64,000 bases of DNA from Oscillospiraceae bacterium. GTDB taxonomy: Bacteria; Bacillota; Clostridia; Oscillospirales; JAAYXM01. The stretch spans positions 6,785 to 70,784 of the forward strand of contig JAFQSU010000075.1 of the NCBI GenBank assembly GCA_017409405.1. The letters run 5' to 3'. The position numbers and the translations under genes are program-made. Under the pieces are notes generated by a model. The model was not told the origin of the DNA. It saw only the letters and a program-made list of their open reading frames with translations, and made no database searches. Below are positions 14,893-37,565 of this stretch, in pieces. Within the stretch, counting starts at the first letter, position 1. Each line of letters opens with the position of its first letter.

Positions 14893-14908
14893 GAAAGGGT
14901 GATAAAAG

Positions 14909-15985: not shown

Positions 15986-16004
15986 AAATATAGGAGCCCT
16001 GAGT

Positions 16005-18308: not shown

Positions 18309-18332
18309 AAAACAGTTTCAAGGAGGTGTAAT

Positions 18333-19649: not shown

Positions 19650-20441
19650 GTGGTCAGGATTGATGACAGGATAAATTTGCAATATGTATCGGCAGGTCTC
19701 TTTTCTACATCTCAGCAGTGGATTCATCCGCGACGAATAATTGACAGTTATGAGATAATATATGTCACTCGCGGAAATGTGCATATTGAAGAGGACGGTG
19801 TAGAGTACAGCTTGAAAAGCGGCGACGTTCTTCTTTTGCGTCCGGGAGTGCTTCATACAGGCAGCCGCATGAGTGAGGGTGAGGTCGAATTTTTCTGGGT
19901 TCATTTTATCACGGATGATATTGATTATTTTTGTCTTGACAAGGTCACTTCTGCCCGGGGTGAGTATATAACACTAAACTTATTCCGGGGGCTTCTGCAC
20001 ATAGCAAATACAGTGTCGATGCCTGAATATGCAAGGGATTTGTCTTGCGGAAGTATAATTGCCCATCTTGCATCAATGGGAAATGGGAAAGAGGCGGCAT
20101 CAACGACGGTCTTTTCCAAAATTTCAGAGTGGGTGCGTATGAATATTCGTCAGAACATGAAGGTTCGCGACATTGCGGAGATGTTCGGATACAATAAAAC
20201 GTACATAAGCCGATTGTTCAAGAAACATTCGGGGTTGACATTGAAAGACTATATAGATAAAGAGCGTATAAATTGTGCGAAAGAGCTCCTTTTGACCACT
20301 GATACAAGTGTGAAGGATATTGCGTATGAGCTGGGTTTCGGGGATGAAAATCTGTTTGTTAAATTCTTTAAGTACCATGAAAAAATGTCACCCACAAATT
20401 TTCGGAATATGTACTTTAAAATACATATGAACAATAAATAA
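19650..20441 (+). CDS. AraC-family transcriptional regulator (cupin sensor + HTH)
   Basis: GTG start after GGAGGTGAAG. The C-terminus has the paired AraC HTH (VRDIAEMFGYNKTYISRLFKK ... VKDIAYELGFGDENLFVKFFK). Confidence 0.85.
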   Translation: MVRIDDRINLQYVSAGLFSTSQQWIHPRRIIDSYEIIYVTRGNVHIEEDGVEYSLKSGDVLLLRPGVLHTGSRMSEGEVEFFWVHFITDDIDYFCLDKVTSARGEYITLNLFRGLLHIANTVSMPEYARDLSCGSIIAHLASMGNGKEAASTTVFSKISEWVRMNIRQNMKVRDIAEMFGYNKTYISRLFKKHSGLTLKDYIDKERINCAKELLLTTDTSVKDIAYELGFGDENLFVKFFKYHEKMSPTNFRNMYFKIHMNNK

Positions 20442-20601: not shown

Positions 20602-22422
20602 ATGCAAAAAGCTCAGCACATAACGTTTACGGAGCTTTCTTTTGGTGACGGCTTTTGGAAAAAACGTCAGGAAATAAACCGAACAGTTACGGCAGGTGCG
20701 GTATATGAAAGATTCAGAGATACGGGCAGGTTTGATGCGCTTGCATGCAAGTGGAAAGAGGGTATGCCCAACAAGCCGCATGAATACTGGGACAGCGATG
20801 TTGCCAAATGGATAGAGGGTGTTGCGTACATAACTGCACGCAGCCGCAACGCAGAACTTGAAAAAATTGTTGACGACACGGTTCGGGAAATTGAAAAGAA
20901 CATGTTGCCGTGCGGATACTTCAACTCATATTACATAACGCTTTTCCCCCAAGACAGATTCACGAACAGAAACAATCATGAGCTGTATTGCCTCGGCCAT
21001 TTTATAGAGGCTGCCATTGCGTACAAAAATGCTACAGGCAAGGATAAGCTTTTGCAGCTTGTGATAAAGTATGTTGATTATGTTGAACGTGTCTTTGTGA
21101 AAGAAAAAAGTGCCGGATTCTTCACTCCCGGACATCAGGAGATAGAGCTTGCGCTGTTTAAGCTCTATAAAGAAACGGGCGAGGTAAGATATTTAAAGCT
21201 TGCATCCTGCTTCTTGGAAGAGCGTGGACGGCACAGCGAAAGTCTTAATCTCCCCGAGTTTCCCGATATAGAGTTTCAGAGTCACAAGCCGGTACGTGAG
21301 CAGACAGAGGCTGTCGGTCACTGTGTGCGCGCTCTTTACATGTACGCGGCGATGGCAGATGTTGCAGGAGAAACGGAAGATGCAGAGCTCGGTTCAGTCT
21401 GTAAAACACTTTTTGACGATATAGTGACGAAAAAGATGTACATTACGGGCGGCGTCGGTTCTGACAGATACGGTGAAAGGTTCACCCATGCGTACGATTT
21501 GCCGAATGATGTTGCATATACGGAAACGTGTGCCGCCATTGCACTGATCTATTTTGCACGGCGCATGTCCGAGCTTGAAACAGATTCAAAGTATGCCGAT
21601 GTCATAGAGCGTGTTTTGTACAATGGCATGCTTTCGGGCGTATCGCTTGACGGAAAAAGGTTTTTCTATACAAATCCGCTCGAAACAGACCCGAGACTCC
21701 TTTCACGGTATGACATTTATGATGAGGCTCCGACATATCAGCCCATACAGCAGCGTGTTGAGGTGTTTGAATGTTCATGCTGTCCTCCGAATATTCTGCG
21801 GTTTATAGCCTCGGTTGAAGAATATTTCTATTCCTTCTCGGATGACACTTGTTTTGTGAATCAGTTTGCATCCGGCACACTCACACACGGGGACGTAAAA
21901 ATAACACAAAATACGGAATATCCGCGAAACGGTGAGATTAAGTTTTCCGTCTCGGGTGAGCTTGAAAAGCTTGCTATCAGAATTCCCGGCTGGTGTGAGA
22001 GCTTTGTGATTGACAGACCGTATGTGATGAAAAACGGATATGCATATATCGAAAAGCCGCAGGGGGAGATTAACCTGAGCTTTGAGATGGAACCGTTCCT
22101 TGTTCAGTCAAACCCCAATGTGACGGAAAACGGCGGCAGGGTTGCATTGCAGCGCGGCCCCATCGTATATTGCGGTGAAGGTCTGCCGGGAACAAATCTT
22201 CGCAGTATGCGGATTGTCAGCGACAGCTTTGATGAGCGGTATGACGAAAAAATCGGTGCAGTCGTTTTGACGGGTAAGCTTGAATGCGATAAGGATGACG
22301 GAGCTTTCGGGCTGTACCGCAAATATGCCGCACCGAAGGATATCGCAGAGGTTGAATTTATCCCTTATTACGCTTTTGCAAATAATGGCGAGCGTGAAAT
22401 GCTCGTTTGGTTTAATGTTTAA
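20602..22422 (+). CDS. Glycoside hydrolase family 127 (beta-L-arabinofuranosidase-like, DUF1680)
   Basis: 606 aa with no signal peptide. YTETC and, 81 residues later, ECSCCPPN match the spacing of the Glu/Cys zinc site and cysteine nucleophile described for HypBA1-type GH127. Confidence 0.8.
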   Translation: MQKAQHITFTELSFGDGFWKKRQEINRTVTAGAVYERFRDTGRFDALACKWKEGMPNKPHEYWDSDVAKWIEGVAYITARSRNAELEKIVDDTVREIEKNMLPCGYFNSYYITLFPQDRFTNRNNHELYCLGHFIEAAIAYKNATGKDKLLQLVIKYVDYVERVFVKEKSAGFFTPGHQEIELALFKLYKETGEVRYLKLASCFLEERGRHSESLNLPEFPDIEFQSHKPVREQTEAVGHCVRALYMYAAMADVAGETEDAELGSVCKTLFDDIVTKKMYITGGVGSDRYGERFTHAYDLPNDVAYTETCAAIALIYFARRMSELETDSKYADVIERVLYNGMLSGVSLDGKRFFYTNPLETDPRLLSRYDIYDEAPTYQPIQQRVEVFECSCCPPNILRFIASVEEYFYSFSDDTCFVNQFASGTLTHGDVKITQNTEYPRNGEIKFSVSGELEKLAIRIPGWCESFVIDRPYVMKNGYAYIEKPQGEINLSFEMEPFLVQSNPNVTENGGRVALQRGPIVYCGEGLPGTNLRSMRIVSDSFDERYDEKIGAVVLTGKLECDKDDGAFGLYRKYAAPKDIAEVEFIPYYAFANNGEREMLVWFNV

Positions 22423-22445: not shown

Positions 22446-23492
22446 ATGAAGAAGATAAGAATCGGACTTGTAGGATGCGGAAACATGATGAGCTTCCACA
22501 TGAATGGTGTAAACAAGGTTGAGGGACTTGAGGTTGTTGCAATCTGTGATACGAATGAGGCAAACATGGCAGAGGTTGCAAAGGTTCTTGATAATCCGTT
22601 CTGCACAACGGATTACCGTGAGATGGTGGATAAGATTGATGCAATCCTCATTGCATTACCGCATCACCTTCATTTCCCCTGCGGCATGTTTTTTGCACGC
22701 CACAAGAAGCATATTCTCATGGAAAAACCGCTTTGCAACACCGAAGAAGAATGTCTTCGCCTTATAAAAGAATGTGAAGACAACGAGGTTGTCCTTATGT
22801 GCGGTTATCCTGTCCGCTACATGCCCGGAATCCTCAAGCTCAAGGAAATGGTAGACAGCGGAGAATACGGCAAGATTATGCAGATGTCCGTCTGGACAGA
22901 ACAGCTTACAACCTGCACAGACCAGGACTGGGTAGGAACCTCCTGCCTTGGCGGCGGTCAGCTTTTCAGCCACGGCTGTCACTATATCGACCTTTTGCTC
23001 TGGTTCTGCGGAAACCCCGTTTCCGGTGCGCACTTCGGAACAAACGTCGGTACTCCGTGGATGCTCAAAGAGGGCACAAGTGCCGTTACAATGTCGTTTG
23101 AAAACGGTGCGATAGGATATCACGGTGCAACTTGGGGCGCAAGAGGTACCCGTATGGGATATGACTTCCAGATAATGATGGAAAAGGGACTTCTTGAATA
23201 TGACCACCAGACGGGTGAGGTCAAGGTGTACGACAAGACAAAGCTTCATAAGCCCGGCGAGCTTGATCACAGCGCAGGCGATTATGAATTGATTTGTAAA
23301 TATGAAGGCAACGACGGCAAGCAGACACAGTATGAAATGTCGCACTTTGTTGATTGCATAGTAAACAAAAAGAAGCCGTTTACCGACGGACTTTCAGCAC
23401 TGAAGGGACTTCGTGTAATATGGGAGCTCTACAACGCAGAAAACAATCATACGCTTGCAGATCTGCGCGGTATGGGACTATCCGAAGAATAA
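22446..23492 (+). CDS. Gfo/Idh/MocA-family NAD(P)-dependent oxidoreductase
   Basis: IGLVGCGNM Rossmann motif and ILMEKP motif, no signal peptide, 23 nt after the GH127 gene. Confidence 0.8.
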   Translation: MKKIRIGLVGCGNMMSFHMNGVNKVEGLEVVAICDTNEANMAEVAKVLDNPFCTTDYREMVDKIDAILIALPHHLHFPCGMFFARHKKHILMEKPLCNTEEECLRLIKECEDNEVVLMCGYPVRYMPGILKLKEMVDSGEYGKIMQMSVWTEQLTTCTDQDWVGTSCLGGGQLFSHGCHYIDLLLWFCGNPVSGAHFGTNVGTPWMLKEGTSAVTMSFENGAIGYHGATWGARGTRMGYDFQIMMEKGLLEYDHQTGEVKVYDKTKLHKPGELDHSAGDYELICKYEGNDGKQTQYEMSHFVDCIVNKKKPFTDGLSALKGLRVIWELYNAENNHTLADLRGMGLSEE

Positions 23493-23507: not shown

Positions 23508-26102
23508 GTGAAAAAGAATCATTTTTTACGCATCTTTAGCATAGCATTTGTTATTTGTATGGCAGTTGCCTTACTGCCGACCGTTTTTGCGTCAGATACG
23601 GAATATGCGATGTCGGGCATTACGGTGCAGTATTCTTTCGATAAGCAAGATTATCAGTCACTGACAACAGGAAAAGAAATAAGCTATTTAAATACAAGCG
23701 GAAGAGTACAATACGATTCATTTTACGGCACAAAGCCGGTTGTTGATAATTTCGGATGGTTCCGAAATGCGATGAGTCTCTATATACTTGAGGGACAGTA
23801 TTATGCATTCAGAATACGAATTCCGAATGCCGGGTGGTATGCTGTAAGTGTAGGATACAACACTCACAGCAGTGCAACGCAGGGTGAAATGTATATACTT
23901 CCAAGTACAACGACGGACATAGCAGCAACACTAAAAAAGGAAGATCCTGTTCTTACAGTAAACTTCAATGGAGTTGATTCGCTGCAAACAGCAGCAATTC
24001 CGTTTACAACTGATACTAAGCTGTTTAAAGCTGAAGCTGCCGGAGAATATTATCTGGTATGGACGGGGACCGGAACGACAAATGCACAGAATCGCCATTA
24101 TTTACTTCCTCGTCTTGTAACACTCAATGGTGGGGATGAAGCTCCGGTTGTTATGTATGCTGAAAGTGAACTTTCAAAAAATACTATAGATTCAATTATC
24201 GGTGAAACGGCTACAATTTCGACAACAACGGCAAAGATGAGTGATGGTACAGACGCTACAGCCACTGATATTGAAAAGCTTACGTATGTAAGCTCGGACG
24301 TCAATATTGCTACTGTATCAGGTAACACGGTAACTGCAGTTTCAAAAGGCAATGTGAAGATTTACACAATGAGCGGAGATTTGAAAGTTGCCGAAAATGA
24401 AATCACAGTTGAAATGAGTGAGATTGTAAAATCAGGAATTACGGTAAAGTATTCTTTTGATAAGCAAGATTATCAGTCACTGACAACAGGAAAAGAAATA
24501 AGCTATTTAAACACCGGAGAAAGAATAGAGTACGATTCATTTTATGGAACAAAGCCGGTTGTTGATAATTTTTCCTGGTTTCGAAATGCTATGAGCCTCT
24601 ATATACTTGAGGGGCAGTACTATGCATTCAGAATACAAATTCCGAAAGCCGGATGGTATGACGTAAGTGTGGGATATAACACTCACAGCAGTGCAACGCA
24701 GGGTGAAATGTATATACTTCCAAGTACAACGACGGACATAGCAGCAACACTAAAAAAGGAAGATCCTGTTCTTACGGTCAACTTTAATGGAGTTGATTCG
24801 CCGCAAACAGCAGCAATTCCGTTTACAACTGATACTAAGTTGTTTGAAGCTGAAGCTGCCGGAGAATATTATCTGGTATGGACGGGGACCGGAACGACGA
24901 ATGCACAGAATCGTCATTACGTCCTTCCACGTCTCGTAACACTCAACGGCGGGGACAGTGCTGCTCTTATGGGAACTAAGATATCATCCGATAAAAGAGT
25001 TATAGCACTTGCCGGTGAGGAAACGGCACAGGTTACGGCGATAGGCTATCTTTCAACAACAGGTGAGGCTGTAGGTTTTACGTACAGTTCGGAAAACCCG
25101 TCTGTTGCAACAGTTTCTGCAGACGGTACCGTAACTGCGAAGAACGGCGGTGTTGCAAAGATTACTGCTACCTGCACAAACGCTGTTTCAGGAAACAACT
25201 CACTTTCGACCATGATTGTTGTTGATGAACCGTCAAACACCGTTTCTTTCGGTGCAGATTCAAACGTTAACGGCGTAAGTATAACAACAAATATCAGCGG
25301 ATACACACAAGGTGAAGTTACCTCGGTTTCTCTGGAAACACCCGTTACGGTCACTGCGAAAAAAACAGTGGATGACTATGTTTTCCGCGGCTGGGTTCGC
25401 GGCTCCGAAAGTGGAGGAAGATTCATCTCAAATGAGACCGAATACAGCTTCAATGCAATGAAAAACACATACCTTACAGCAATATACACACTCGCGGCAG
25501 ACAAAGAGTATTATGCATGGAACGGCGAGTTCCTCGGTACTGAGGAGCCGGAGGAACCCGAAGTTCTCGGATATGTCTTTGATGAATGGAAGCCGAGTGA
25601 GGATGCTGATGTAACACGTTATGTAGCACAGTATACGCAGGCTGCTGATGAGTACAACGTTACATATAACGGCGTTACGAATAAATACAAATTCAACGAT
25701 AAGGTCGTTCTCGAGTCGAACACAGCGGTATACTGGTACCGAAATGACAAGCTTGTGGACTACGGCACCGAATACACATTCTATGTATGGGATGATGCAA
25801 CGGTAAAGACATCTTCAGAGGGTCATGAGCTTCCGATAGTTGTGCTTGATGCAAAGGTTAAGGACAATAACTTTATGATTGAGTATGACAATGCAGGCAA
25901 GGAAATTGTTGAAGTAGGTATTCTTTTCGGCAATGCAGGTTCGGTACCCACCGTTTCCTCCTGCTATGAGAACATGAACTCACAGCGTGAAAATGTTTCT
26001 CACGGTCAGTTTACGGCACGTGCTGACCGATATACAAATGCGCGCGGATACCTCATATACAGGGACAGCGATGACAGCTTTAAAGTAATATACTCCGAAT
26101 AA
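23508..26102 (+). CDS. Secreted multidomain protein: 2 copies of an unassigned CBM-like module, Big_2-like Ig domains and InlB-B/Flg_new-like repeats
   Basis: Signal peptide ending VFA|SD. Two 174-aa modules lie 273 aa apart. Big_2-like segments (e.g. VSSDVNIATVSGNTVTAVSKGNVKIY). YVFRGW and GYVFDEW repeats. No anchor motif seen. Confidence 0.75.
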   Translation: MKKNHFLRIFSIAFVICMAVALLPTVFASDTEYAMSGITVQYSFDKQDYQSLTTGKEISYLNTSGRVQYDSFYGTKPVVDNFGWFRNAMSLYILEGQYYAFRIRIPNAGWYAVSVGYNTHSSATQGEMYILPSTTTDIAATLKKEDPVLTVNFNGVDSLQTAAIPFTTDTKLFKAEAAGEYYLVWTGTGTTNAQNRHYLLPRLVTLNGGDEAPVVMYAESELSKNTIDSIIGETATISTTTAKMSDGTDATATDIEKLTYVSSDVNIATVSGNTVTAVSKGNVKIYTMSGDLKVAENEITVEMSEIVKSGITVKYSFDKQDYQSLTTGKEISYLNTGERIEYDSFYGTKPVVDNFSWFRNAMSLYILEGQYYAFRIQIPKAGWYDVSVGYNTHSSATQGEMYILPSTTTDIAATLKKEDPVLTVNFNGVDSPQTAAIPFTTDTKLFEAEAAGEYYLVWTGTGTTNAQNRHYVLPRLVTLNGGDSAALMGTKISSDKRVIALAGEETAQVTAIGYLSTTGEAVGFTYSSENPSVATVSADGTVTAKNGGVAKITATCTNAVSGNNSLSTMIVVDEPSNTVSFGADSNVNGVSITTNISGYTQGEVTSVSLETPVTVTAKKTVDDYVFRGWVRGSESGGRFISNETEYSFNAMKNTYLTAIYTLAADKEYYAWNGEFLGTEEPEEPEVLGYVFDEWKPSEDADVTRYVAQYTQAADEYNVTYNGVTNKYKFNDKVVLESNTAVYWYRNDKLVDYGTEYTFYVWDDATVKTSSEGHELPIVVLDAKVKDNNFMIEYDNAGKEIVEVGILFGNAGSVPTVSSCYENMNSQRENVSHGQFTARADRYTNARGYLIYRDSDDSFKVIYSE
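23616..24137 (+). repeat. Unassigned 174-aa module, copy 1 (coding repeat)
   Basis: GITVQYSFDKQDY...PRLVTLNGGD. Hand alignment to copy 2 gives 12 differences in 174 residues with no gaps. Confidence 0.9.
24435..24956 (+). repeat. Unassigned 174-aa module, copy 2 (coding repeat, 819 nt downstream of copy 1)
   Basis: GITVKYSFDKQDY...PRLVTLNGGD. It contains a 98-nt run (24678-24775) identical to 23859-23956. Confidence 0.9.
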
Positions 26103-26171: not shown

Positions 26172-29100
26172 ATGAAAAGAATTCTATCGGCACTGCTTAC
26201 GCTGTGCATGGTTATTTCAATGCTTCCGGCAGTGAATATTGCCGAAGCGGTTGAGCCGTCCGGCGTAAAGGTTATTTACCCGATGTGGCAGGATTCGTAT
26301 TTTGAAGAGGGAAGAAGACTTAATCCGGCAGAAATTGATTATACCGTAAGCGGTGGACGTATTTCGTGGCATGAGTTTACCGGAACGGTTACGGGCAGTG
26401 CTGCATGGGGCTTAGGTTCCCTTTCGATATATCTCAGAAAAGATGAATACGCGGCATTTAAAATCAAGGTACCGGCATCGGGGTATTATGATATAAAGCT
26501 CGACTACGGAAGTACGGCCGATAAAACATACGCAACAGGCGGTGCGATGTATTTCCTGCCCGGAGACACTTCAGACATAGCAACGGCGCTTCTGACTGCA
26601 ACACCTGTCATGACCGTTGATTTTGCAGGCGAGGTAACAACTGCATGGGGTGACTTTGATAAGTATTACAAGGGCATGGCAAACAATGTTCCGTCAAAAA
26701 CGGTTGAGGATAAAGACCTCGACGCAGGGGAGTACATTGTGGTCTGGACAGGATATGGTGAAATTAAGGGAGGAAGATATTTTCTCCGCCCTGCTACAAT
26801 GACTCTTGACGGCGGACCGGGGAAGGCATCCATGTATGCGGAAAGCACGCTTTCAAAGGCAAAGCTTAATTTAAAATCTGCCACTACCGCATACATCTCC
26901 ACCTCGAAGGTAGTAATGAGTGACGGAACATCAGGTACGGCACAGGATATTTCCTCCCTTACATACTCAAGCTCGGACGAAAGCATTGTGACCGTGTCGG
27001 AGAATAAGATTACCGCAGTTTCCGAAGGAGAAGCGAAGGTATATACAAAAAGTAACGACCGAATCATAGCAGAGGATAAAATTACGGTTGAAAACCGTGA
27101 TGTTGAAATGTCGGGCATCACGGTTAAATATCCTTTTGACAAGCAGGACTACATGACCCTCGCTACAGGAAAAGAAATAAGCTATCCCAACAGCGGCGGA
27201 AGAGTAAAATACGATTCATTTTACGGCACAAAGCCGGTTGTTGATAATTTTGCATGGTTTCGAAATGCTTTAAGCCTCTATATACTTGAGGGACAGTATT
27301 ATGCATTTAAGATACAAATCCCGAAAGCCGGAGGGTATAACGTAAGCGTCGGATACAACACACATAGCAGTGCAACTGCCGGTGAAATGTATATTCTTCC
27401 AACGACAACCTCGGATATTGCAGGAACACTGAAACAGGAGATTCCGGTTGCGACGATAAACTTTAAAGGTATAGACAGTGAACAGACCGCGGCTATTCCG
27501 TTTACAACAGAAAACCTCTTTTTTGAGGCTGAAACTGCCGGTGAATATTATCTGGTATGGAAGGGAACGGGAGAGACGAATAAAGACAATCGCCATTATT
27601 TGCTCCCACGTCTTGTAACGCTTGACGGAGGGGACGGCACTGTTCCGACATATACATTGTTCAAGTTATCAAAAGCGCTCAGACCGAGTGTTGAGATTAT
27701 AATGAGTGACGGCTCTGTCGTTGATGGGAACAAGCTCGGCGTTGTTTATGAGTCGTCCGATGAAACCATACTTCGCCAAAATCCGAAAACCGGCAAGTTT
27801 GAAACTCCGGGAACAGGTTTGGTAGAAGTGACTGCAACGGTTGAGTATCAGGGGAAAAAGTATTCTGCGACTGTTGAGCGCATGATTACGGGTAATGAAA
27901 TTCTTCCGTTCAGCGGAAAATTTGTAAAGTATGATTTTTCTGAGAAGAGTGTATTCTGGACGCCTGTTTACTGGCAGGGAGAGGACAAGCCAAAGGCAAA
28001 CGATATTCGTGGCATAACATATGAATACACATCAAATACCGGAGAGGACGGTAACTGGGAGTGGTGTGACAGCTCAATTCCCGGAATTTATACAGATGCA
28101 GGAAAGAACTTAGCGGTACAGACGTTTGTTGCCAAGGATGTCAACGGACATATGCGCATCGGTATAAGCAAAGACAAATGGGTTGCCTTGAGAATAAAAG
28201 TGCCGGCGGCAGGAAGATATTTCGGCACTGCAGTTTACCGTAAAAACTATTCCGGCAGAGTTGCGGCAGGCATATATATTCTCCCCGGAGATGTTGAGGG
28301 GACGAACAACATAGAAGCCGCACTCACTGAAGATAACTACATAGGATTGTTTGATTGTAATGACCCCGAGGAGCTTTCGGCTTCGCTTGATTCTTCGCAT
28401 TACTTTGATGTGGATATATCTGATGAGTACATCAATGACAGTGGCGAATGCATACTTGTATTCAAAGCTCTCGGCGGCGGTTACTTTGATGTCAAGTCTC
28501 TGTCGCTTGACGGCACAGAGGGTATGAAAACCGTTGACCTGTCAGTTGACTCCGAAAAAATCGAAGTAGGAGCAAGAGAAAAGCTTAACGTAAAGGCACG
28601 TCTTCTTGATGAGTCTGTTATTGACAGCAGCGAGATTTCTGTAAAATACACCTCATCCGCATCGAACATAGCAGAGGTTTCCGACGATGGCTTTGTTACA
28701 GGTATTTCAGAAGGAAGTGCGGAAATTTCTGCAAAAGTATCGTACAACGGAACAAAAATAACTGCCCATACAACTGTTTATGTTCAGGATACAAGCGATA
28801 TAAAATCAACTGAGCTTGCAGTTGAAGAGGTTATGTTTGTAAATGCGAGAAAACGCATAAGATTCAATGCTGAGACAGAAAAGAAAAGCATTCTTGAAAT
28901 CCCCGTTTCGGAATATAAGCTTGACTGTGACCCGGTTGGAATTGCGTATGTGGATGATGACGGGTATATAAACGCAATGAGCGAAGGTACGGTTACGCTT
29001 GAGGTGTTTGCAGATTACCGCGGAAACTCGGGTCTGTACGGAAAAGCTGAGATAACTATCCTTGATAGCGGAAGCAAAACGGAAGTTACAGCTTTCACCC

Positions 29101-32100
29101 AGGACATGCGCGAAACGGCACTTGAAAATGCAGAGAAGTATGACTGGGCGAAAAAAGAACAAAAAGCGTGGAGAGACCGTGCGGATACATATGTCGAAAA
29201 TCTCGACTTCTTCTATGACCATATAGTGGGAGAGGGAATTCCACGAGTGCAGAAGATGGGAACTTACAACAACCCCGACTACAAGTACTGCAATTACTGC
29301 GGCGAGGATATTGTTGCGAAGTACGGAAACGACGGCTCGTATGCATATACGGTTAATTTCATGGGGCGTCCGTGGAAAATTCAGTGTCCTTCCTGCAAGC
29401 GTCAGTTCCCTTCAAACGACTTTGCAAGCTTTTACGAGCTTGGACTTGATGCGCAGGGACTGTTTGATTTAAAGCTTGCGCGTGAAAATCACCATAAAAT
29501 GCTTTTCCATACCGATGACAGCCCGTGTGAGCATGTTGCTCCGTCGGAGGAATATTCTTCCGAGTGGTATGAGTATTACGGTTATGGAAATACAGACGGA
29601 TATCTTTACAACGAGCTGTATACCGAGCTATGGAAAGACACGTCGGCAAAAACCTATAACACAGACCCCAATCCGAGAAAAGAAAACCGTTATGTTGACG
29701 GTTTGATGTGGGGAGTAGATGATGGATTCGGATATATTCCTAGAGATGCGACAGGAAAGCAGTATACTCATGCAGACGGAAAAAATGAGATGCATACCCC
29801 TGTTGCGCTGTACAACGGAACAACGTGGTTCCAGGATATAAGAGCTGCAATAACAAGACTTACGAATGCGTATCTGTATACAGGAGAAGAAAAATACGGC
29901 AGAGCCGGAGCGATTCTCCTTGACCGAATTGCAGACGTCTACCCGGATATGGATTTATTCAAGTACTTTAAAGTATACTGGCCGAACACTTCTACCGGCG
30001 ACGGCGCGATTCTCGGAACAGTTCAGGACGTTAACTTCGGGCAGAATTTTGCAGATGCGGCAGATGCATTTTTCCCGAGACTAAAAGATGAATTTGTATA
30101 CAAATACCTTTCTGCGAAGGCAGAAACATTTTCGCTTAAAAACAAAAAGGAAAGCGCATATGATATCTGGAAGAACTGGGAGGAAAATCTCCTTCAAGAG
30201 AACTTCCGAAAAGTAAAAAGCGCAGACCTCAGCGGAAACTTCGGTATGCATCAGGTTGTTCTCATAAAAACAGCACTTGCAATAGGAAACGAAGCAGACA
30301 GCGAAGAGATGCTTGATTATCTGTACAAAACAGGCGGATATCAAGGATATATGTCATTCTCCATTACAGGAGGAAATGTCTCTAACACGATTGTGGCAGA
30401 AACCGACCGCGACGGATTTGCATACGAATCATCACCTCAGTACAATTATTTTACTCCCGACGGCTTGCTGATGATTGCAAATTCTCTTGCATTGTACAAG
30501 GGAAAGAATGCAGAAAAGTATGATATAATAAAAAATCCGAAATTTGCACAGATTGTGACGAGTATGTCGGAGTTGGTAGTGAGTGACAGCCACACAATTC
30601 AGCTTGGAGACTCTCAGGGTATGGCGACACTCGATTTCGTGGATTCGGCAGATGACATGGTGCTTGCATTCAAATATCTTAAGAAAACACCTGTTGCCGA
30701 AAAAATAGCAAAACAGATATATTTGCTTAAAAACGGTGATGTTTCGGATTTACACTACGATATATTCACTCAAAATCCCGAAAGTATCGCCGAGGAAGTA
30801 GAAGCGTTAGCAAGCAACATTGAAAAACCAAAGAGCAAAATTCTTACGGGCTTCGGTCTTGCAATGCTTCACGACGGAGAACGCTACGAAGCGATCAGCC
30901 AGAACGGAACAAACAATTCGTTGCGTACATTCTGGATGTATTCGGGCTGGGGAGATTCGGGACATCATCAGCTTGATTCGCTTAATATAGGAATCGAAGC
31001 ATTTGGACTCAATCTTTCCCCTGATAACGGTTACCCCGAGGCTGCAGGAAGTGATCCGAACAGAGTGCAGTGGGTTGAAACAACCTTAGCCCACAACTCC
31101 GTTACAGTCGATGAGGATGTTCAGAACAGAACGCTTGAATCAGGCGACCCACTTCACTATGACGGTGACGGCAGGGTTAAGCTTATCGATATGAGAAGCG
31201 AAGAAAGTTATCCGCATCTTGATGAATACCGAAGGACACTTGTTATGATTGAAGCTCCGGGGGATATCAGCTACGGTGTTGATTTCTTTAACGTTCAGGG
31301 CGGAACAAGTCACATTTACAGCTTCCATGCACAGTCTGAACAGGCGCAGACAGAAGGTCTTGATATAGTGCCGCAGATAAAGGATGGTGCGTATTCAGGC
31401 TCATATGCAGGCGTTGATGTTCCGGGATTTAAGCAAGACCCCGGAACTCCGGATTCAAGCCTTTTCTATCCCAAAGGATATACATGGCTCAAAAATCTTG
31501 ACCGTGCAGCAGACCCTCAGGGCGACTTTTCCATAGATTTCGCTATTACCGATTACAACAAAGCGATACAAGATAACAGGGATATCCACCTGCGTATGAC
31601 TCAATTGGCGGAAGTTGGGGCTGAATTTACCGAAGTTACGGTTGCTGACGGATATGTGCCGAATAAGCAGGTAAACAAGAACATTCCGAGGGGTATCAAA
31701 TATGCCCTTGTAAAGCGAGAAGGACAAAACCTCAAGAGCTTGTTCACGACTGTTTTTGAACCGTATCGCGGAGAACGGTATGTTAAGAAAATTACACCGG
31801 TGGAAATGATGCCCGTTCCCAAACAGGGGAAAGCAAGAGCGGTATGTGTTGAGCTTGTAAACGGTCAGAAGGACTATATTGTATACTCGACAGATAATAC
31901 CGTGAAATACAATGTGGGCGGAGTGTTTGAGTTCCGCGGCTTTGTGGGAGTATATTCAGTTGATAAGAATAATAAAAATGTTTATTCTTACATAAATGAC
32001 GGAGACGTTATTGGTACAAGCACACAGCTTGAAAAAGAGTATAGCGGAACTGTTGCAGATTTCAGTCGCGAGAACTCGTATAACAACTATATAACACTCA

Positions 32101-33362
32101 ATATGCAGGCAGATAAAGTCTCAGAGTTTGCCGGAAAAATTGTCAGAATCAAGAATGACGGAATTCAGAACGGAGCATATCTGATTGAAAGTGCCGAGCC
32201 GATTTCCGACACACAGGTAAAGCTTAACATCGGGCTTGTGACAACAATCCGCAAATACGTGGATGAAGATGACTTCGCAAAGGGGTATGTCTACAACATA
32301 AAAGAGGGGCAGACCGCTGTAATTGCGATGTCGCATGAGCAGGACTTCGCACCGAGATTTGCAGGATTGGAAACAACGCCGTCGGTGTCTGCAGGAAGCA
32401 CTATCTCGGTACAGCTTGCCGCAAAGAGCGACGACCCGGATGCCCGGATTTCCTACATCGGCACATCCTTGCCGAGAGGTGCAAGTATAGATTCCGATAC
32501 AGGAGTGTTTACATGGAAACCGTCAGCAAGTCAGGTGGGTGACAATCATGTTGCGATAACTGCACGTGACAATTACGGACGTGAATCAATAATACACTTT
32601 ATCGTCGCGGTATATGGCTCGACAACGAACTCTACACCTGCAGAACCCGACACACCGTCAGGTGGCGGCGGTGGAGGTGGCGGCGGCGCCGCACCTGCCC
32701 CCGACACAGACGAGAATACCGATATCCCGTCAGATGACGAAACCACACAACCTGAAGGAGACGACAACACTTCTGTAGGGGAGGGTGTCCTTGCCCTCCC
32801 GTCGGTTGGATTCACCGACCTCGGCAACCACGCCTGGGCGGCTGACGCCATAGCAGAGCTTTCGGAAAAGGGTATTATCAAAGGGACATCTGACACCACC
32901 TTCTCACCGGCAAGCAATATCACACGAGCAGATTTTGCACTTCTTCTTGTTCGCGCATTCGGGCTTGAGAGTGAGAATGCCGAAAACTTCGCGGATGTTA
33001 ATGAGTCCGACTACTTTGCCCGTGAGCTTGCGATAGCGAGAAATAACGGTATCGTCGGCGGTATAGGCGATAACAAGTACGCACCGCGTAACACCATAAC
33101 CCGTCAGGATATGATGGTAATCATCTATCGCGCAATAGCCTCCATTGTGCAAAGGGAGGGGGACCGCTCCGCGGTGGAGGGATTGTCTGTCCTGAAATAT
33201 GAGGACTTCGACTCCGTCGCACCTTACGCAAAAGACGCAGTCGCGGCACTCATCTCAGCAGGGCTTGTCAACGGCAAGAACGGACGTATTGCACCGACCG
33301 ATTACACAACCCGTGCAGAGGTCGCAGTACTTATCAAGCGCATTTTAGACTATACAAAATAG
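26172..33362 (+). CDS. Giant (2396 aa) SLH-anchored cell-surface protein with a heparinase II/III-like polysaccharide-lyase-type core
   Basis: Signal peptide (AEA|VE), three copies of the unassigned module, about 4 Big_2-like domains and a lyase-like core. The core carries GHHQLDSLNIGIEAFGLNLSPDNGYPE...LAHNSVTVDE. It is followed by a cadherin-like/He_PIG-type Ig domain, a Gly/Pro/Asp linker and three SLH repeats. Confidence 0.85.
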   Translation: MKRILSALLTLCMVISMLPAVNIAEAVEPSGVKVIYPMWQDSYFEEGRRLNPAEIDYTVSGGRISWHEFTGTVTGSAAWGLGSLSIYLRKDEYAAFKIKVPASGYYDIKLDYGSTADKTYATGGAMYFLPGDTSDIATALLTATPVMTVDFAGEVTTAWGDFDKYYKGMANNVPSKTVEDKDLDAGEYIVVWTGYGEIKGGRYFLRPATMTLDGGPGKASMYAESTLSKAKLNLKSATTAYISTSKVVMSDGTSGTAQDISSLTYSSSDESIVTVSENKITAVSEGEAKVYTKSNDRIIAEDKITVENRDVEMSGITVKYPFDKQDYMTLATGKEISYPNSGGRVKYDSFYGTKPVVDNFAWFRNALSLYILEGQYYAFKIQIPKAGGYNVSVGYNTHSSATAGEMYILPTTTSDIAGTLKQEIPVATINFKGIDSEQTAAIPFTTENLFFEAETAGEYYLVWKGTGETNKDNRHYLLPRLVTLDGGDGTVPTYTLFKLSKALRPSVEIIMSDGSVVDGNKLGVVYESSDETILRQNPKTGKFETPGTGLVEVTATVEYQGKKYSATVERMITGNEILPFSGKFVKYDFSEKSVFWTPVYWQGEDKPKANDIRGITYEYTSNTGEDGNWEWCDSSIPGIYTDAGKNLAVQTFVAKDVNGHMRIGISKDKWVALRIKVPAAGRYFGTAVYRKNYSGRVAAGIYILPGDVEGTNNIEAALTEDNYIGLFDCNDPEELSASLDSSHYFDVDISDEYINDSGECILVFKALGGGYFDVKSLSLDGTEGMKTVDLSVDSEKIEVGAREKLNVKARLLDESVIDSSEISVKYTSSASNIAEVSDDGFVTGISEGSAEISAKVSYNGTKITAHTTVYVQDTSDIKSTELAVEEVMFVNARKRIRFNAETEKKSILEIPVSEYKLDCDPVGIAYVDDDGYINAMSEGTVTLEVFADYRGNSGLYGKAEITILDSGSKTEVTAFTQDMRETALENAEKYDWAKKEQKAWRDRADTYVENLDFFYDHIVGEGIPRVQKMGTYNNPDYKYCNYCGEDIVAKYGNDGSYAYTVNFMGRPWKIQCPSCKRQFPSNDFASFYELGLDAQGLFDLKLARENHHKMLFHTDDSPCEHVAPSEEYSSEWYEYYGYGNTDGYLYNELYTELWKDTSAKTYNTDPNPRKENRYVDGLMWGVDDGFGYIPRDATGKQYTHADGKNEMHTPVALYNGTTWFQDIRAAITRLTNAYLYTGEEKYGRAGAILLDRIADVYPDMDLFKYFKVYWPNTSTGDGAILGTVQDVNFGQNFADAADAFFPRLKDEFVYKYLSAKAETFSLKNKKESAYDIWKNWEENLLQENFRKVKSADLSGNFGMHQVVLIKTALAIGNEADSEEMLDYLYKTGGYQGYMSFSITGGNVSNTIVAETDRDGFAYESSPQYNYFTPDGLLMIANSLALYKGKNAEKYDIIKNPKFAQIVTSMSELVVSDSHTIQLGDSQGMATLDFVDSADDMVLAFKYLKKTPVAEKIAKQIYLLKNGDVSDLHYDIFTQNPESIAEEVEALASNIEKPKSKILTGFGLAMLHDGERYEAISQNGTNNSLRTFWMYSGWGDSGHHQLDSLNIGIEAFGLNLSPDNGYPEAAGSDPNRVQWVETTLAHNSVTVDEDVQNRTLESGDPLHYDGDGRVKLIDMRSEESYPHLDEYRRTLVMIEAPGDISYGVDFFNVQGGTSHIYSFHAQSEQAQTEGLDIVPQIKDGAYSGSYAGVDVPGFKQDPGTPDSSLFYPKGYTWLKNLDRAADPQGDFSIDFAITDYNKAIQDNRDIHLRMTQLAEVGAEFTEVTVADGYVPNKQVNKNIPRGIKYALVKREGQNLKSLFTTVFEPYRGERYVKKITPVEMMPVPKQGKARAVCVELVNGQKDYIVYSTDNTVKYNVGGVFEFRGFVGVYSVDKNNKNVYSYINDGDVIGTSTQLEKEYSGTVADFSRENSYNNYITLNMQADKVSEFAGKIVRIKNDGIQNGAYLIESAEPISDTQVKLNIGLVTTIRKYVDEDDFAKGYVYNIKEGQTAVIAMSHEQDFAPRFAGLETTPSVSAGSTISVQLAAKSDDPDARISYIGTSLPRGASIDSDTGVFTWKPSASQVGDNHVAITARDNYGRESIIHFIVAVYGSTTNSTPAEPDTPSGGGGGGGGGAAPAPDTDENTDIPSDDETTQPEGDDNTSVGEGVLALPSVGFTDLGNHAWAADAIAELSEKGIIKGTSDTTFSPASNITRADFALLLVRAFGLESENAENFADVNESDYFARELAIARNNGIVGGIGDNKYAPRNTITRQDMMVIIYRAIASIVQREGDRSAVEGLSVLKYEDFDSVAPYAKDAVAALISAGLVNGKNGRIAPTDYTTRAEVAVLIKRILDYTK
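26259..26817 (+). repeat. Unassigned module, diverged copy A (N-terminus of the giant protein)
   Basis: The same landmarks appear in the same order: hydrophobic-Y-P start, YAAFKIKVPASGYYDIKLDYG, AMYFLPGDTSDIATAL, AGEYIVVWTG, RYFLRPATMTLDGG. Confidence 0.65.
27114..27635 (+). repeat. Unassigned module, copy B (giant protein)
   Basis: GITVKYPFDKQDY...PRLVTLDGGD. It is 174 aa and gap-free against copies 1 and 2, roughly three-quarters identical by hand count. Confidence 0.9.
27908..28513 (+). repeat. Unassigned module, diverged copy C (giant protein)
   Basis: FVKYDFSEKS..., WVALRIKVPAAGRYFGTAVY, GIYILPGDVEGTNNIEAAL, ECILVFKALGGGYFDVKSLSLDG; longer loops than the other copies. Confidence 0.55.
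29090..31900 (+). other. Lyase-like catalytic core (helical N-terminal part + heparinase II/III-like C-terminal part)
   Basis: The Hepar_II_III-like signature lies around 30960-31130 (HHQLD ... D-x-G-Y-P ... AHNSVTVD). The upstream segment looks helical (RLTNAYLYTGEEKYGRAGAILLDRIADVYP). Boundaries are approximate. Confidence 0.6.
32380..32615 (+). other. Cadherin-like / putative Ig (He_PIG-type) domain
   Basis: LPRGASIDSDTGVFTWKPSASQVGDNHVAITARDNYG pattern. Confidence 0.55.
32808..33350 (+). other. Three tandem S-layer homology (SLH) repeats
   Basis: FTDLGNHAWAADAIAELSEKGIIKG...ITRADFALLLVRA; FADVNESDYFARELAIARNNGIVGG...ITRQDMMVIIYRA; FDSVAPYAKDAVAALISAGLVNG...TTRAEVAVLIKRI. Confidence 0.85.
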
Positions 33363-33376: not shown

Positions 33377-34921
33377 ATGAAAAAGCGTATACTGTCTTTA
33401 TTACTTGCAACACTCTTGTTTTTATCCCTTGCGGCTTGTAACGAACAAGCCCCGAACGAAACTGCCGCAAACAATGATCCGCTTACAAAAGACGATGTCA
33501 TAACAATGGTCATTAACTCAAGTGCAAGCTGGCCGTTTCAGGAAGATTGGAAAATCTGGGATTATATAGAAGAGATAAGCGGTGCAACACTTGATGTAAC
33601 GGCAATTATAACTGATGCAGATGCAAAATACGCAACTATGTTTGCATCCCCCGACACGCTTCCTGATATTGTCGGTTTTTCACATAAGACCGGTACGGAT
33701 AAGTTTGTTATTCAGGGCGCACTCAAATCACTTGATGAAATGAAAGAGTATATGCCGAACTATAATTCATGGGTTGATTCGCTTTCTGAAGAAGAGGTAA
33801 AAAATGTTATAAATACACGCAAAGCGTATGACGGAAAAATATATGCTGCCCCGATTACGGGAAGAGAAAAGTCGCAGGGTCTCCGTGCATGGCTCTATCG
33901 TAAGGACATTTTTGACAAACACAATATCAAGACACCTGAAACTTTTGATGAGCTTTATGAAGTATGTAAGCAGTTAAAAGAAATTTATCCCGATTCTTAT
34001 CCCTTTAGTGCAAGAAACGGTATTTACATGCTTGATGCTCAGGCACCGTCGTGGAAGCCGTACTGGAATACTCAGGAATACTATGATTACAACAGCGAAA
34101 AATGGTGCTATGGTGCTTCTGAAGACGTGCTTCTTGATATGCTGACCTTCTACAAGCGTATGATTGATGAAAAGCTTATGCCGTCTGACTTCATGACGAT
34201 TTCCACCACTTCGTGGAGTGAACTTGTAACGACCAACCGCGGATTTATTATGCCGGAGTATCAGACGCGTATAGACTATTTTAACTCTCTTGCCCGTTCA
34301 AATATTGAAGGGTTTGACGTTACTGCCATGGTACCGCCTGTTGCCGATGCAGATAACGGAATGTCAATGATGAACAAGTATAACATTGACCCGATGGCGG
34401 TTGTAATGTGCAACACCGGTGACGAAGAACGGATGGCAAAGGCTGCAAAGTTCCTCGATAGTTTCTATACTGATGAAGCAATGGAGCTTCTCTCTTGGGG
34501 TAAAGAGGGAGAAACATACGAAATTGCAGACGGAAAGAAAAAATTTATCACGGATGAAAACGGAACGCAGGCAAGCACGCTTTACGGAATATCTACATAT
34601 GCAACGTTCACACGCATGGATCCCGAGGCTGTTCTTGCTTTTGAGTCTGAGGATATAGCAAGAACCCGTGATATGGTTATCGAACACACACTTCCCAATG
34701 CAAACCCGAATCTCTGGATAGCATTCACCCCCGAGGAACAAAAGATTTTTGTTGAGTATCAGATGGCTTTGCGTAATTATGCAACAGAAATGATATCTAA
34801 GTTCCTCCTCGGTCAGGAGCCGCTTTCGGCGTTTGATAAGTTCCAGGAAACACTTAAAACAGAGTTCGGACTTGAAGAATATCTTGCAGTTCATGAGTCT
34901 GCATATGCAAGGATCAAATAG
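33377..34921 (+). CDS. Lipoprotein, family-1 extracellular solute-binding protein of an ABC sugar importer (no cognate permease genes nearby)
   Basis: Lipobox LSLAAC. The ~500-aa size and W/Y-rich composition are typical of Firmicutes oligosaccharide SBPs. RBS GAGGAGG upstream. Confidence 0.75.
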   Translation: MKKRILSLLLATLLFLSLAACNEQAPNETAANNDPLTKDDVITMVINSSASWPFQEDWKIWDYIEEISGATLDVTAIITDADAKYATMFASPDTLPDIVGFSHKTGTDKFVIQGALKSLDEMKEYMPNYNSWVDSLSEEEVKNVINTRKAYDGKIYAAPITGREKSQGLRAWLYRKDIFDKHNIKTPETFDELYEVCKQLKEIYPDSYPFSARNGIYMLDAQAPSWKPYWNTQEYYDYNSEKWCYGASEDVLLDMLTFYKRMIDEKLMPSDFMTISTTSWSELVTTNRGFIMPEYQTRIDYFNSLARSNIEGFDVTAMVPPVADADNGMSMMNKYNIDPMAVVMCNTGDEERMAKAAKFLDSFYTDEAMELLSWGKEGETYEIADGKKKFITDENGTQASTLYGISTYATFTRMDPEAVLAFESEDIARTRDMVIEHTLPNANPNLWIAFTPEEQKIFVEYQMALRNYATEMISKFLLGQEPLSAFDKFQETLKTEFGLEEYLAVHESAYARIK

Positions 34922-35114: not shown

Positions 35115-35507
35115 TTATTCTGCGGTTTCAATTTTTACATTATAAAACCTGTTTTTGTTTTCGCATCCGGTGATTCCTATGTAAACCTTCTCGGGCAAAT
35201 TATCAATTCTCAAAGTAAAAGTTTCTTCGCCGACGGAGACTTTTACACACTTGTCCATAAGCTCCAGATAAAGTTCGTGCTTTGTGTTGGGGGAGAGGGA
35301 AAAGTCGTCAGATAAAAGCTTTTTCACTTTTATTTGCTCGTCTTCAACGAAAATATCCCATACATTGATGCCCTTTTCCCAAAGCACAACCTCGTGGCAT
35401 TTGTCATAGAAAAGGTCTCCTTTTTCGTCTGTTTCAAGAATATCAGTCAAAGTGATAAGTGGTGCGCCGAACTTCTCAAAAGAGCAGGAAACGCAAGCAA
35501 TTTTCAT
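35115..35507 (-). CDS. Hypothetical protein (about 130 aa)
   Basis: Start taken at the internal Met (MKIACVSC). The ORF-track extension to 35684 runs through a 19-bp hairpin. No family recognised. Confidence 0.4.
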   Translation of the reverse strand: MKIACVSCSFEKFGAPLITLTDILETDEKGDLFYDKCHEVVLWEKGINVWDIFVEDEQIKVKKLLSDDFSLSPNTKHELYLELMDKCVKVSVGEETFTLRIDNLPEKVYIGITGCENKNRFYNVKIETAE

Positions 35508-35612
35508 AAAATTAACTTTACTTGCACTTGCTATCCCAAGCTTTACACCTGGGATAGTAAGGCTCCCCACATAATTGAAATGGTGAAAGGGTACAGTCGT
35601 GGACCGCCTCCA

Positions 35613-35659
35613 CCAAATCAAAAGCACACCAGCCGTAGGTTGGTGTGCTTTTGATTTGG
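35613..35659 (-). terminator. Strong hairpin downstream of the AraC gene (probable terminator or attenuator)
   Basis: CCAAATCAAAAGCACACCA (35613-35631) and TGGTGTGCTTTTGATTTGG (35641-35659) are perfect 19-bp arms. There is no clean T tract after the stem on the minus strand. Confidence 0.5.
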
Positions 35660-35690
35660 TGCGACAGACAAAATCGAGTGTCAACAGTGT

Positions 35691-36509
35691 TTAATTATGC
35701 CCAGTTATATGCTTTCTGTATTCGCCTACCGTCATGCCGAATTTGTTTTTAAACCGCTTCATAAAATAATGCTCATCACAAAAACCGCAGTGGTTGCAAA
35801 GCTCACTTATATTATAGCTTCGATTTTGTAAAAGCGAAGCTGCGTAGTCAAGACGGAGATTTATGAGGTGTGAAATCGGGGTTTCGCCGGTTTCCCGTTT
35901 GAAAATCCGGGACAGCTGAGACGGTGTCATGTAGAGCATATCGGCAATATCCGATACGGAGAACTCGGGATTCTTATAATTAAAAAGCATGATATCCTCG
36001 ATGCTGTTGATGATATCTGTTGCATTGCGGCGGCGTGAGTCATCCTGCGGCTTTGAAAACTCAATTGAAAGAATTTTATGTAAAGTATTCAATGCCGAAA
36101 AATACAAATCATCGCAGTCTTCTGCATTCATAAAAAACGAGGAAAAAATCTGGAATATTTTCTGCGGATGCTTTGCAGGAACAGCAAAGTTATTGCTTGA
36201 AAACCCCAGAGCAGTTAATATATCTATAGCTGAATCGGGATATCCGGATATGAAGAAATACTTCCATGGATTGTTGTCGTCGGCATAGTAATTTACCGGT
36301 TCAAGCGGAGGGGTAAGAAAAAACATTCCTGATTTTATGTCATACTGTTGCTTTCTCACAAAAAGCTTTCCGCTGCCTCTTTGTACATAGTGGAGCGCCC
36401 AGTATGTTTTCGAACGGAAAAAATGAGAGTCTCTGCCTTCTCTTGAATCGTGCTGTCCGATGCTTCGCAGGTTAAAAAGCTCGTCATTGTATTTTTCAAG
36501 AAGTATCAT
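35691..36509 (-). CDS. AraC-family transcriptional regulator
   Basis: Start at the Met of MILLEKYN, preceded by GGGAGGG. C-terminal AraC HTH pair (VSDIADMLYMTPSQLSRIFKR ... ISELCNHCGFCDEHYFMKRFK). Confidence 0.85.
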   Translation of the reverse strand: MILLEKYNDELFNLRSIGQHDSREGRDSHFFRSKTYWALHYVQRGSGKLFVRKQQYDIKSGMFFLTPPLEPVNYYADDNNPWKYFFISGYPDSAIDILTALGFSSNNFAVPAKHPQKIFQIFSSFFMNAEDCDDLYFSALNTLHKILSIEFSKPQDDSRRRNATDIINSIEDIMLFNYKNPEFSVSDIADMLYMTPSQLSRIFKRETGETPISHLINLRLDYAASLLQNRSYNISELCNHCGFCDEHYFMKRFKNKFGMTVGEYRKHITGHN

Positions 36510-36726
36510 TATACATCCCTCCCATACGATTTGGATGGTGAACGTCGCTCTTCTATATAATACCACTTTTTTCTTTGACGCACAATAAAAAGTCAAAAAA
36601 AGACACAATTGATGCAATTATATTTATTTTATTATGATTGTTATTCGTGTTATACTTATGGAGTAAGGCTCAGATTTGTGCTTGGCAAAAATACAAAAAA
36701 GACAAACGTGAAAAGGAGAGCTGTTT

Positions 36727-37563: not shown

Positions 37564-37565
37564 TT

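Follow-up and report, generated by a model that had tools for sequence, protein, structure and literature searches.

The 64,000-nucleotide stretch analysed here (the window) comes from an Oscillospiraceae bacterium (contig JAFQSU010000075.1, positions 6,785 to 70,784 of the forward strand) and contains, at 26172..33362 (+), one unbroken open reading frame (ORF) of 2396 amino acids (aa), with a GGAGG Shine-Dalgarno sequence 8 nucleotides (nt) 5' of its ATG. On balance, our analysis indicates that the encoded protein, called the giant below, is probably a secreted, wall-tethered polysaccharide lyase (PL) that would cut a uronic-acid glycan by beta-elimination. Its gene belongs to a co-directional block composed of an AraC gene (19650), a GH127 gene (20602), a GFO/IDH/MocA oxidoreductase gene (22446), a gene for an 864-aa protein with the same type of module as the giant (23508), the giant gene itself (26172) and a gene for a solute-binding protein (SBP) of the lipoprotein type (33377), followed by an opposite-strand AraC gene, two Amidohydro_2 genes and another AraC gene.

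The giant begins with a Sec signal peptide, recognised by inspection of the translation (MKRILSALLTLCMVISMLPAVNIAEA, then V; residues 1-26, 26250 being the first nucleotide after its span of 26172..26249, with predicted cleavage between AEA and V). Three copies of a module, separated and followed by four immunoglobulin (Ig)-like spacers, make up the next part of the protein, all on the + strand like every domain of this gene: module A (residues 27-216, 26250..26819), Big_2-like Ig domain 1 (residues 217-311, 26820..27104), module B (residues 312-490, 27105..27641), Ig-like domain 2 (residues 491-576, 27642..27899), module C, a divergent copy with an N-terminal insertion (residues 577-784, 27900..28523), Big_2 domain 3 (residues 785-876, 28524..28799) and Big_2-like domain 4 (residues 877-967, 28800..29072). 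All four spacers are of the Big_2 type: domain 3 is above the Pfam threshold (31.1 bits, and 40.6 bits in the whole-protein scan), domain 1 is 0.5 bit under it (22.3 bits for a cut-off of 22.8) and related to the other Ig segments, and the remaining two were recognised by mutual similarity, domain 2 having no Pfam match and a pairwise E of 3e-5 to domain 3, and domain 4 a Pfam E of 0.12 and an E of 1e-8 to domain 3.

The core (residues 968-2058) starts with an N-terminal extension (residues 968-1207, 29073..29792), modelled partly at low confidence, that carries a Cys4 zinc ribbon (C1040/C1043/C1072/C1075, nt 29289-29396), and continues through an (alpha/alpha) toroid (residues ~1208-1552, 29793..30827) and a beta-sandwich (residues ~1553-1947, 30828..32012) into an extra C-terminal beta domain (residues ~1948-2058, 32013..32345). 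Behind the core lie a He_PIG / Big_9 Ig-like domain (residues 2059-2150, 32346..32621; Pfam He_PIG 36 bits at 2068-2143), a low-complexity linker (residues 2151-2208, 32622..32795) and three SLH repeats (residues 2209-2396) that, with the stop codon, occupy 32796..33362. Pfam recognises a canonical SLH triplet in three stretches (2214-2390, 112.7 bits), and residues 2214-2389 align with the solved SLH domain of Bacillus anthracis Sap (6bt4/3pyw) at E 6.5e-10 to ~7e-10; among the window ORFs scanned, no pyruvyl-transferase family turned up. A first-pass annotation, made from the DNA letters alone, had listed these domains and an SLH triplet in the same order, and both hold across the whole ORF, with the correction that the linker, by direct reading, contains nine consecutive glycines (2164-2172) and not eight, ahead of a Pro/Asp/Glu/Thr-rich stretch.

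Used singly against PDB sequences, the giant matched only through its SLH region, and NCBIfam gave no core assignment. A word-indexed search with the core returned 477 matches, most of them annotated as 'heparinase II/III family protein' and coming from Oscillospiraceae, Clostridiales and Paenibacillus; at the level of 50%-identity clusters, it has 1697 representative homologues at E <= 0.001, 608 of them at E <= 1e-30. The Pfam model Hepar_II_III_C (PF07940) scored 19.4 bits on the giant (at 1596-1721), below its gathering score of 24; it is passed by the homologues P0125 (43.2 bits), P0124 (30.3 bits) and P0122 (24.7 bits), and most family members have a precomputed PF07940 match. Because the giant itself is sub-threshold, its heparinase-type assignment rests on a family profile, derived from an alignment of 20 cores (A1), and on an AlphaFold2 (AF2) core model built on the same alignment.

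Searched against the PDB, the family profile gave its best match to Uly1040, an ulvan lyase of PL40 (E 9.2e-13); alginate lyases of PL17 followed at 5e-11 to 1e-4, and one PL15 enzyme was matched very weakly. These matches were confined to the C-terminal half of the core, that to Uly1040 running over ~390 residues to ~residue 1945, and a toroid-only profile found neither PL40 nor PL17 in the PDB and only heparinase III, at a marginal E of 0.064. The AF2 model of residues 968-2058 (pLDDT 81.5, pTM 0.83) shows, in order, the N-terminal extension, a helical toroid (core residues 243-580), a beta-sandwich and a further beta domain, the last all-beta, with pLDDT above 90, and beyond the end of the Uly1040 alignment. 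All 44 Foldseek matches in the PDB at E <= 0.001 were polysaccharide lyases of the toroid-plus-sandwich type, with PL17 and PL40 first, then PL39, PL12, PL15, PL33-type glycosaminoglycan lyases, PL21 and PL8; the best, PL17 7bjt/4nei and PL40 9vtk, reached E 1e-19 and TM scores of 0.61-0.67 normalised to the target, the toroid being matched to PL17, PL40 and PL12. The two-domain lyase fold therefore bears out the heparinase II/III-type core named in the first-pass annotation, and the ~200-aa beta-rich stretch that was there listed apart as unassigned belongs to the conserved core: stand-alone homologues of ~1000 aa span the entire core including the C-terminal beta part (query coverage 99-100%), and the Uly1040 alignment extends to ~1945. 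A further lead, the gellan lyase of Bacillus sp. GL1 with its giant ~260-kDa precursor, was dropped; the gellan lyases met in the literature belong to PL33, a family whose entries among the fold matches are hyaluronan lyases and rank only 30-39.

Uly1040, a marine Alteromonas enzyme (PDB 9vtk; PMC12915356), is thus both the best sequence-profile match and a close fold match (Foldseek E 1e-19), and the giant resembles it in kind by an Asn plus aromatic neutraliser, a Glu...Tyr acid motif, an Asp relay, a His base in an H-x-H motif and an AHN motif. It differs from Uly1040 in that identity is 14%, that the N-terminal toroid is undetectable by sequence, that Gln takes the place of the Mn ligand His487, and that the giant has the ~240-residue N-terminal extension with the zinc ribbon as well as the extra C-terminal beta domain; the module, He_PIG and SLH parts lie outside the matched region, and ulvan, the substrate of Uly1040, is not expected in a herbivore gut. 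The PL17 oligo-alginate lyases (Alg17c 4nei/4ojz, the Zobellia enzyme 7bjt and AlgL17 9irq) are the best fold matches, with TM 0.64-0.67 on the target over ~780 aligned columns, and the GHGHxD and AHNTV motifs align with them in the family profile. Like the PL17 exo-lyases, the stand-alone relatives in the family of the giant have no signal peptides, and in one examined locus the gene adjoins an ABC importer. Identity to PL17 is nevertheless 14-15%, the PL17 enzymes are ~700 aa long, and their neutralising pair, Asn-His, contrasts with Asn-Phe in the family of the giant. The PL39 enzyme Dp0100 from Defluviitalea (6jp4), described in its PDB entry as a multi-domain alginate lyase of a thermophilic bacterium, follows at E 6e-17, and PL12 heparinase III (4mmh, 5jmd) at E 4e-14. 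Heparinase III is the only solved protein for which the toroid could be aligned by sequence; for these two, structural scores are lower than for PL17 and PL40, identity is 12-13%, and the matched regions exclude the module, He_PIG and SLH. Overall, the core family looks separate from PL40 and PL17, and we regard the giant as a typical member of a large, uncharacterised and probably unclassified lyase-like family.

The residues expected of a lyase active site can be followed through this family. In Uly1040, Asn245/Trp246 neutralise the carboxylate, Tyr305 is the acid, and His485 is the base, which is activated via Asp358, His487 and Mn2+; the H487A mutant is inactive, and the PL39 enzyme Dp0100 has the same His-Asp-His-Mn tetrad (PMC12915356). 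We counted conservation over 212 homologous cores. In the sandwich, where the profile alignment with Uly1040 applies, His1598 (nt 30963-30965) corresponds to the base His485 and is found in 212/212 cores, position 1600 (nt 30969-30971) corresponds to the Mn ligand His487 and is His in 194/212 and Gln in the giant, and His1641-Asn1642 (nt 31092-31097), which fall on the Uly1040 AHNTV motif, occur in 211/212 and 212/212, respectively; Arg1688, Tyr1701 and Asp1704 are each present in all 212. In the toroid, the motif DRDGxxxESSPQY aligns with heparinase III ADGMQFELSPIY, placing Glu1419...Tyr1424 (Tyr1424 nt 30441-30443; Glu in 207/212, Tyr in 212/212) on its ELSPIY motif at the marginal E of 0.064 given above, and the tyrosine of that motif is the catalytic Tyr294 of heparinase III.

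As the toroid profile gave only this marginal heparinase III match, Asn1356 and Asp1480 could not be aligned to a solved enzyme. Asn1356-Phe1357 (Asn1356 nt 30237-30239; Asn in 208/212) is provisionally paired with Asn245-Trp246 of Uly1040, and Asp1480 (nt 30609-30611) with Asp358, by conservation and spacing: Asp1480 does not vary among the 20 sequences of A1 (column D513) and is present in 16/16 locus cores covering the position, and the site spacing in Uly1040 and the giant is 60 and 68 residues from Asn to Tyr and 53 and 56 from Tyr to Asp. The His/Tyr constellation, whose absence the first-pass annotation had named as the finding that would speak against a lyase, is thus present and almost invariant. 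The zinc ribbon of the N-terminal extension, which gives a weak Pfam DZR match, is found in 204/212 cores and is replaced in a Paenibacillus subgroup.

The one substitution among these positions sets the giant apart, as it reads G-H-H-Q-L-D where 194/212 relatives read H-x-H-x-D. The H-H-Q form is common to its orthologues P0122 (62% identity), P0123 (77%) and the protein of locus L007 (76%), and this clade keeps Asn1356, Glu1419, Tyr1424, Asp1480, His1598, Tyr1621 and His1641/Asn1642. Position 1600 is not His in 18/212 cores, with Asn in 9, Gln in 4 and Lys, Ala, Ser, Cys and Asp in the five others; outside the giant, P0122, P0123 and the L007 protein, there are 14 such cores, nine with Asn and two with Gln. 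This replacement, together with the inactivity of Uly1040 H487A (PMC12915356), would be consistent with a binding-only protein, in which the H-H-Q group had lost metal-assisted base activation and served as a surface receptor holding glycan for other enzymes. The three binding-type modules of the giant would suit that role, and in L001 (10001-23931) a candidate partner enzyme exists, the H-H-Q orthologue directly preceding a 2319-aa paralogue with the canonical H-G-H motif. We nonetheless consider a receptor unlikely, given that relaxed selection would not give such retention of all the other active-site residues, that 13/18 non-His cores have Asn or Gln, both able to hydrogen-bond Asp1480 or to ligate a metal, and that the window has no canonical paralogue next to the giant gene. 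As judged from the alignment, H-H-Q looks like a maintained variant and not like decay.

Modules A, B and C are mutually homologous (A-B E 2e-31, A-C 1.5e-7, B-C 5e-7). Modelled by AF2, module B folds as a beta-jelly roll (pLDDT 76.5, pTM 0.78), and its Foldseek matches were the xanthan-binding MiXBM 7ehg (E 8e-5), CBM6 2cdo/2cdp, CBM36 1w0n and CBM35 2vzp, with an overall range of E 8e-5 to 1e-3 and TM 0.5-0.64. The binding modules of the first-pass annotation are in keeping with this carbohydrate-binding module (CBM)-like jelly roll, seen in the one copy that was modelled and from which the fold of module A is presumed. No Pfam CBM model matched the modules, the sole Pfam match being Golvesin_C on module B, sub-threshold at 22.6 bits for a cut-off of 31.6. 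Because a word-index homologue search with module B alone found no matches, the module was traced with a local hidden Markov model, built from the five copies in the window (three in the giant, two in the upstream 864-aa gene) and searched over the collected relatives and loci. It occurs in 76/257 collected relatives, in 1-6 copies each and always N-terminal of the core, and also in ~900-aa proteins encoded just upstream of giants at other loci. With moderate confidence, and judging from the model, we place the module in the CBM6/35/36-like fold group, as a divergent representative that accompanies the lyase-like family.

The module is also visible as DNA repeats in the window (23613-24147, 24432-24966 and 27111-27645). 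The two copies in the 864-aa gene are ~90% identical as DNA and 93% as protein, and identity between them and module B of the giant is 77-82% as DNA and 78-79% as protein; the repeats point to recent copying, by duplication or gene conversion, between these neighbouring genes.

Multimodular SLH-anchored glycanases of Firmicutes carry their binding modules at the N-terminus and their SLH triplet at the C-terminus, along with a catalytic core and Ig-like spacers. The layout of the giant follows the design of those with CBM6/CBM35/CBM36, with the difference that its modules have no Pfam CBM match and appear tied to the lyase-like family and the ~900-aa neighbour proteins. Neither the size nor the architecture is unusual within the family, contrary to the first-pass annotation: in a census of 137 new representatives of 50%-identity clusters, 120 were at least 2000 aa long (maximum 4110 aa), SLH was present in 101, the module in 69, and module, He_PIG and SLH together in 53. 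Three orthologous loci have the same layout, and the domain strings of P0122 and the L007 protein are the same as that of the giant. The closest relative is a protein from an Oscillospiraceae metagenome-assembled genome (MAG), at 76% identity, and the nearest relatives come from Oscillospiraceae MAGs, two of them from goat rectum. Other forms include P0121 (4066 aa), with two complete cores in one protein, four tandem ~1050-aa paralogues on one contig (L006, 329-13177), and the stand-alone ~1000-aa relatives without signal peptides, which resemble cytoplasmic PL15/PL17 oligo-lyases; at the one stand-alone locus that was examined, from Paenibacillus (L003), the gene directly follows those for an SBP and two ABC permeases.

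At the head of the locus around the giant gene is the AraC-family regulator (19650..20441, +; Pfam), with 75% identical homologues in L001 and L007. The GH127 beta-L-arabinofuranosidase-like protein (20602..22422, +; Pfam GH127 322 bits) has no signal peptide, as read from its N-terminus; its nearest structure is the Geobacillus beta-L-arabinofuranosidase 4qjy (E 1.4e-142), and homologues 76-77% identical to it adjoin the orthologous giants in L001 and L007. The 864-aa secreted protein (23508..26102, +) has two modules and Big_2, the only Pfam match, and is 52.6% identical to residues 3-488 of the giant; no catalytic domain, SLH or other anchor was detected in it, and its C-terminal ~270 aa gave only a faint match to Flg_new (Listeria-Bacteroides repeat). 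Equivalents of ~900 aa precede the giant gene in L001, L007, L010 and L012, so that this type of protein is a conserved partner of the giant.

The SBP (514 aa, 33377..34921, +; Pfam SBP_bac_1) starts 14 nt after the stop codon of the giant. Its closest structures are the alginate binders AlgQ1/AlgQ2, matched over the full length at E 1.6e-19, followed by 5gx8/5gub/5xs8, which bind unsaturated glycosaminoglycan disaccharides, and in its sequence it therefore resembles binders of acidic (uronate) oligosaccharides. In L005, L010 and L011, where the giants are more distant (core identity 39%), the next gene encodes an SBP homologue with 40-45% identity. The order AraC, GH127, ~900-aa module protein and giant is kept in two other organisms, with AraC and GH127 75-77% identical. 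From GH127 to the SBP the genes are tightly spaced, with strong ribosome-binding sites and no convincing terminator between them, and a strong terminator with an 18-bp stem (19371-19409) separates the locus from the cluster upstream. Together, these neighbours match what would be expected if a Gram-positive bacterium used the locus to utilise an acidic glycan, possibly one decorated with arabinofuranose.

That upstream cluster, at 61-19337 (+), is an 18-gene co-directional polysaccharide biosynthesis cluster encoding an initiating sugar transferase, GT1/GT2/GT4 and GtrII-like proteins, a Wzy-type polymerase, YdjC and an acyltransferase. Within it lie genes for a GGDEF protein (8330-10276) and an EAL protein (15951-17384), a sign that cyclic di-GMP may control the cluster. 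Its G+C content is 0.36, compared with 0.43-0.47 downstream.

The presence of this glycosyltransferase/Wzy/acyltransferase cluster, with its GGDEF and EAL proteins, directly upstream of a gene for a predicted wall-anchored enzyme raises a second alternative, that the giant would trim or release an exopolysaccharide or wall polymer of the organism itself, made by this cluster, and not act on a dietary glycan. We regard this as quite unlikely. The reading was down-weighted because the adjacency is absent in L001, where the genes upstream of AraC-GH127 encode a ceramidase, a YgjP-like protein and a CN hydrolase; in addition, the G+C step from 0.36 to 0.44 and the strong terminator lie between the two blocks, and the AraC regulators, the uptake SBP and the cytoplasmic GH127 are hallmarks of a catabolic locus.

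Our favoured reading gives the following scheme, in which the lyase chemistry, wall binding, residue roles and the order of steps are those that we infer, and the ORF, domains, fold, residue conservation and synteny are what the analysis shows. The SLH triplet would hold the giant on the wall polymer, and the Gly/Pro/Asp linker, He_PIG and the four Ig-like spacers would project the core and the three CBM6/35/36-like modules outward, where the modules would capture the polymer. By analogy with PL40, PL39 and PL17, the reaction would take place in the cleft between toroid and sandwich: Asn1356 would neutralise the uronate carboxylate, His1598, oriented by Asp1480, would take the C5 proton, and Tyr1424 would protonate the leaving O4. 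Gln1600 stands in place of the Mn/Zn-holding His of PL40/PL39, so that base activation would be either metal-independent or dependent on a Gln-ligated metal. The co-transcribed AlgQ-like lipoprotein would then bind the released acidic oligosaccharides for import, and the cytoplasmic GH127 would strip beta-L-arabinofuranosyl decorations. As to the substrate, our guess from the context is an acidic plant glycan with L-arabinofuranose. The wall-tethered, module-bearing depolymerase with a lyase fold that the first-pass annotation had envisaged thus stands in substance, as far as sequence and models can indicate, without the unusual size and architecture that it ascribed to the protein.

Glucuronyl C5-epimerases have the same toroid-plus-sandwich fold as lyases and, like them, begin by abstracting the C5 proton. 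A uronate C5-epimerase or hydrolase on the same fold, modifying the polymer rather than cutting it, would draw on this likeness and on the lack of unsaturated-uronate catabolic genes among the window ORFs scanned, but is very unlikely in view of the 44/44 significant fold matches that are lyases (none is an epimerase), the conserved residues that mirror the His-base/Tyr-acid set of PL40 and PL39, and the co-transcribed oligosaccharide-type SBP and cytoplasmic exo-glycosidase, which argue for depolymerisation followed by uptake.

Several observations weigh against the giant as an active lyase of acidic glycans and temper our confidence in it. The Pfam Hepar_II_III_C match is sub-threshold for the giant, and its identity to any solved lyase is 14-15% at best. 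The assignment of Tyr1424 is marginal by itself (toroid alignment E 0.064), and the roles of Asn1356 and Asp1480 are assigned by conservation and spacing, not by three-dimensional superposition. Gln1600 replaces a His that, when changed to Ala in Uly1040, leaves the enzyme inactive. The module B model has low confidence at residues 14-45 and its CBM matches are modest (E ~1e-4). Among the scanned window ORFs of at least 150 aa, there is no GH88/GH105, KduI/KduD or ABC permease, and literature searches, incomplete in coverage, gave no biochemically characterised family member.

Oscillospiraceae are abundant and poorly cultured fibre degraders of animal guts, and the lyase-like family is expanded among them, with four tandem copies in one locus, a double-core protein and several paralogues on one contig. 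If the family is active, it would make up a substantial group of uncharacterised surface lyases that have a binding module of their own, and identification of the substrate would give a function to more than 1,000 entries labelled only 'heparinase II/III family protein'. The distinguishing features are the family-specific CBM-like module, the zinc-ribbon extension and the H-H-Q tetrad variant in the GH127-linked orthologue group. Since Gln and Asn occur naturally in place of the metal-ligand His, the family offers a ready test of the His-Asp-His-metal activation model proposed for PL39/PL40. More tentatively, and as a possibility that we would hold with some doubt, the giant may represent an unclassified Firmicutes PL family (>1,600 clusters at 50% identity) with a dedicated module, in which the GH127-linked H-H-Q group would employ Gln where a metal-ligand His is usual and would cleave, in the herbivore gut, a so far unrecognised acidic plant glycan decorated with L-arabinofuranose.

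Several other genes around the locus deserve mention. The GFO/IDH/MocA oxidoreductase gene (22446-23492) lies between GH127 and the module protein, and the Amidohydro_2 genes form a tandem pair (36727-38375); from their families, a route for the released sugar through a sugar 1-dehydrogenase and a lactonase is conceivable. L007 lacks a GFO/IDH/MocA gene at this place and has, upstream of GH127, a gene for a xylose-isomerase-like TIM barrel; in L011, a GFO homologue adjoins the SBP of that locus. Two ORFs had no Pfam match, 35115-35684 (-), of 188-189 aa, which lies between the SBP gene and an AraC gene and also had no NCBIfam match, and 58854-59651 (-), of 264-265 aa. The window encodes four AraC-family regulators with cupin sensor domains, at 19650-20441, 35691-36617 (-), 38567-39406 and 62596-63513, three of them around the lyase locus.

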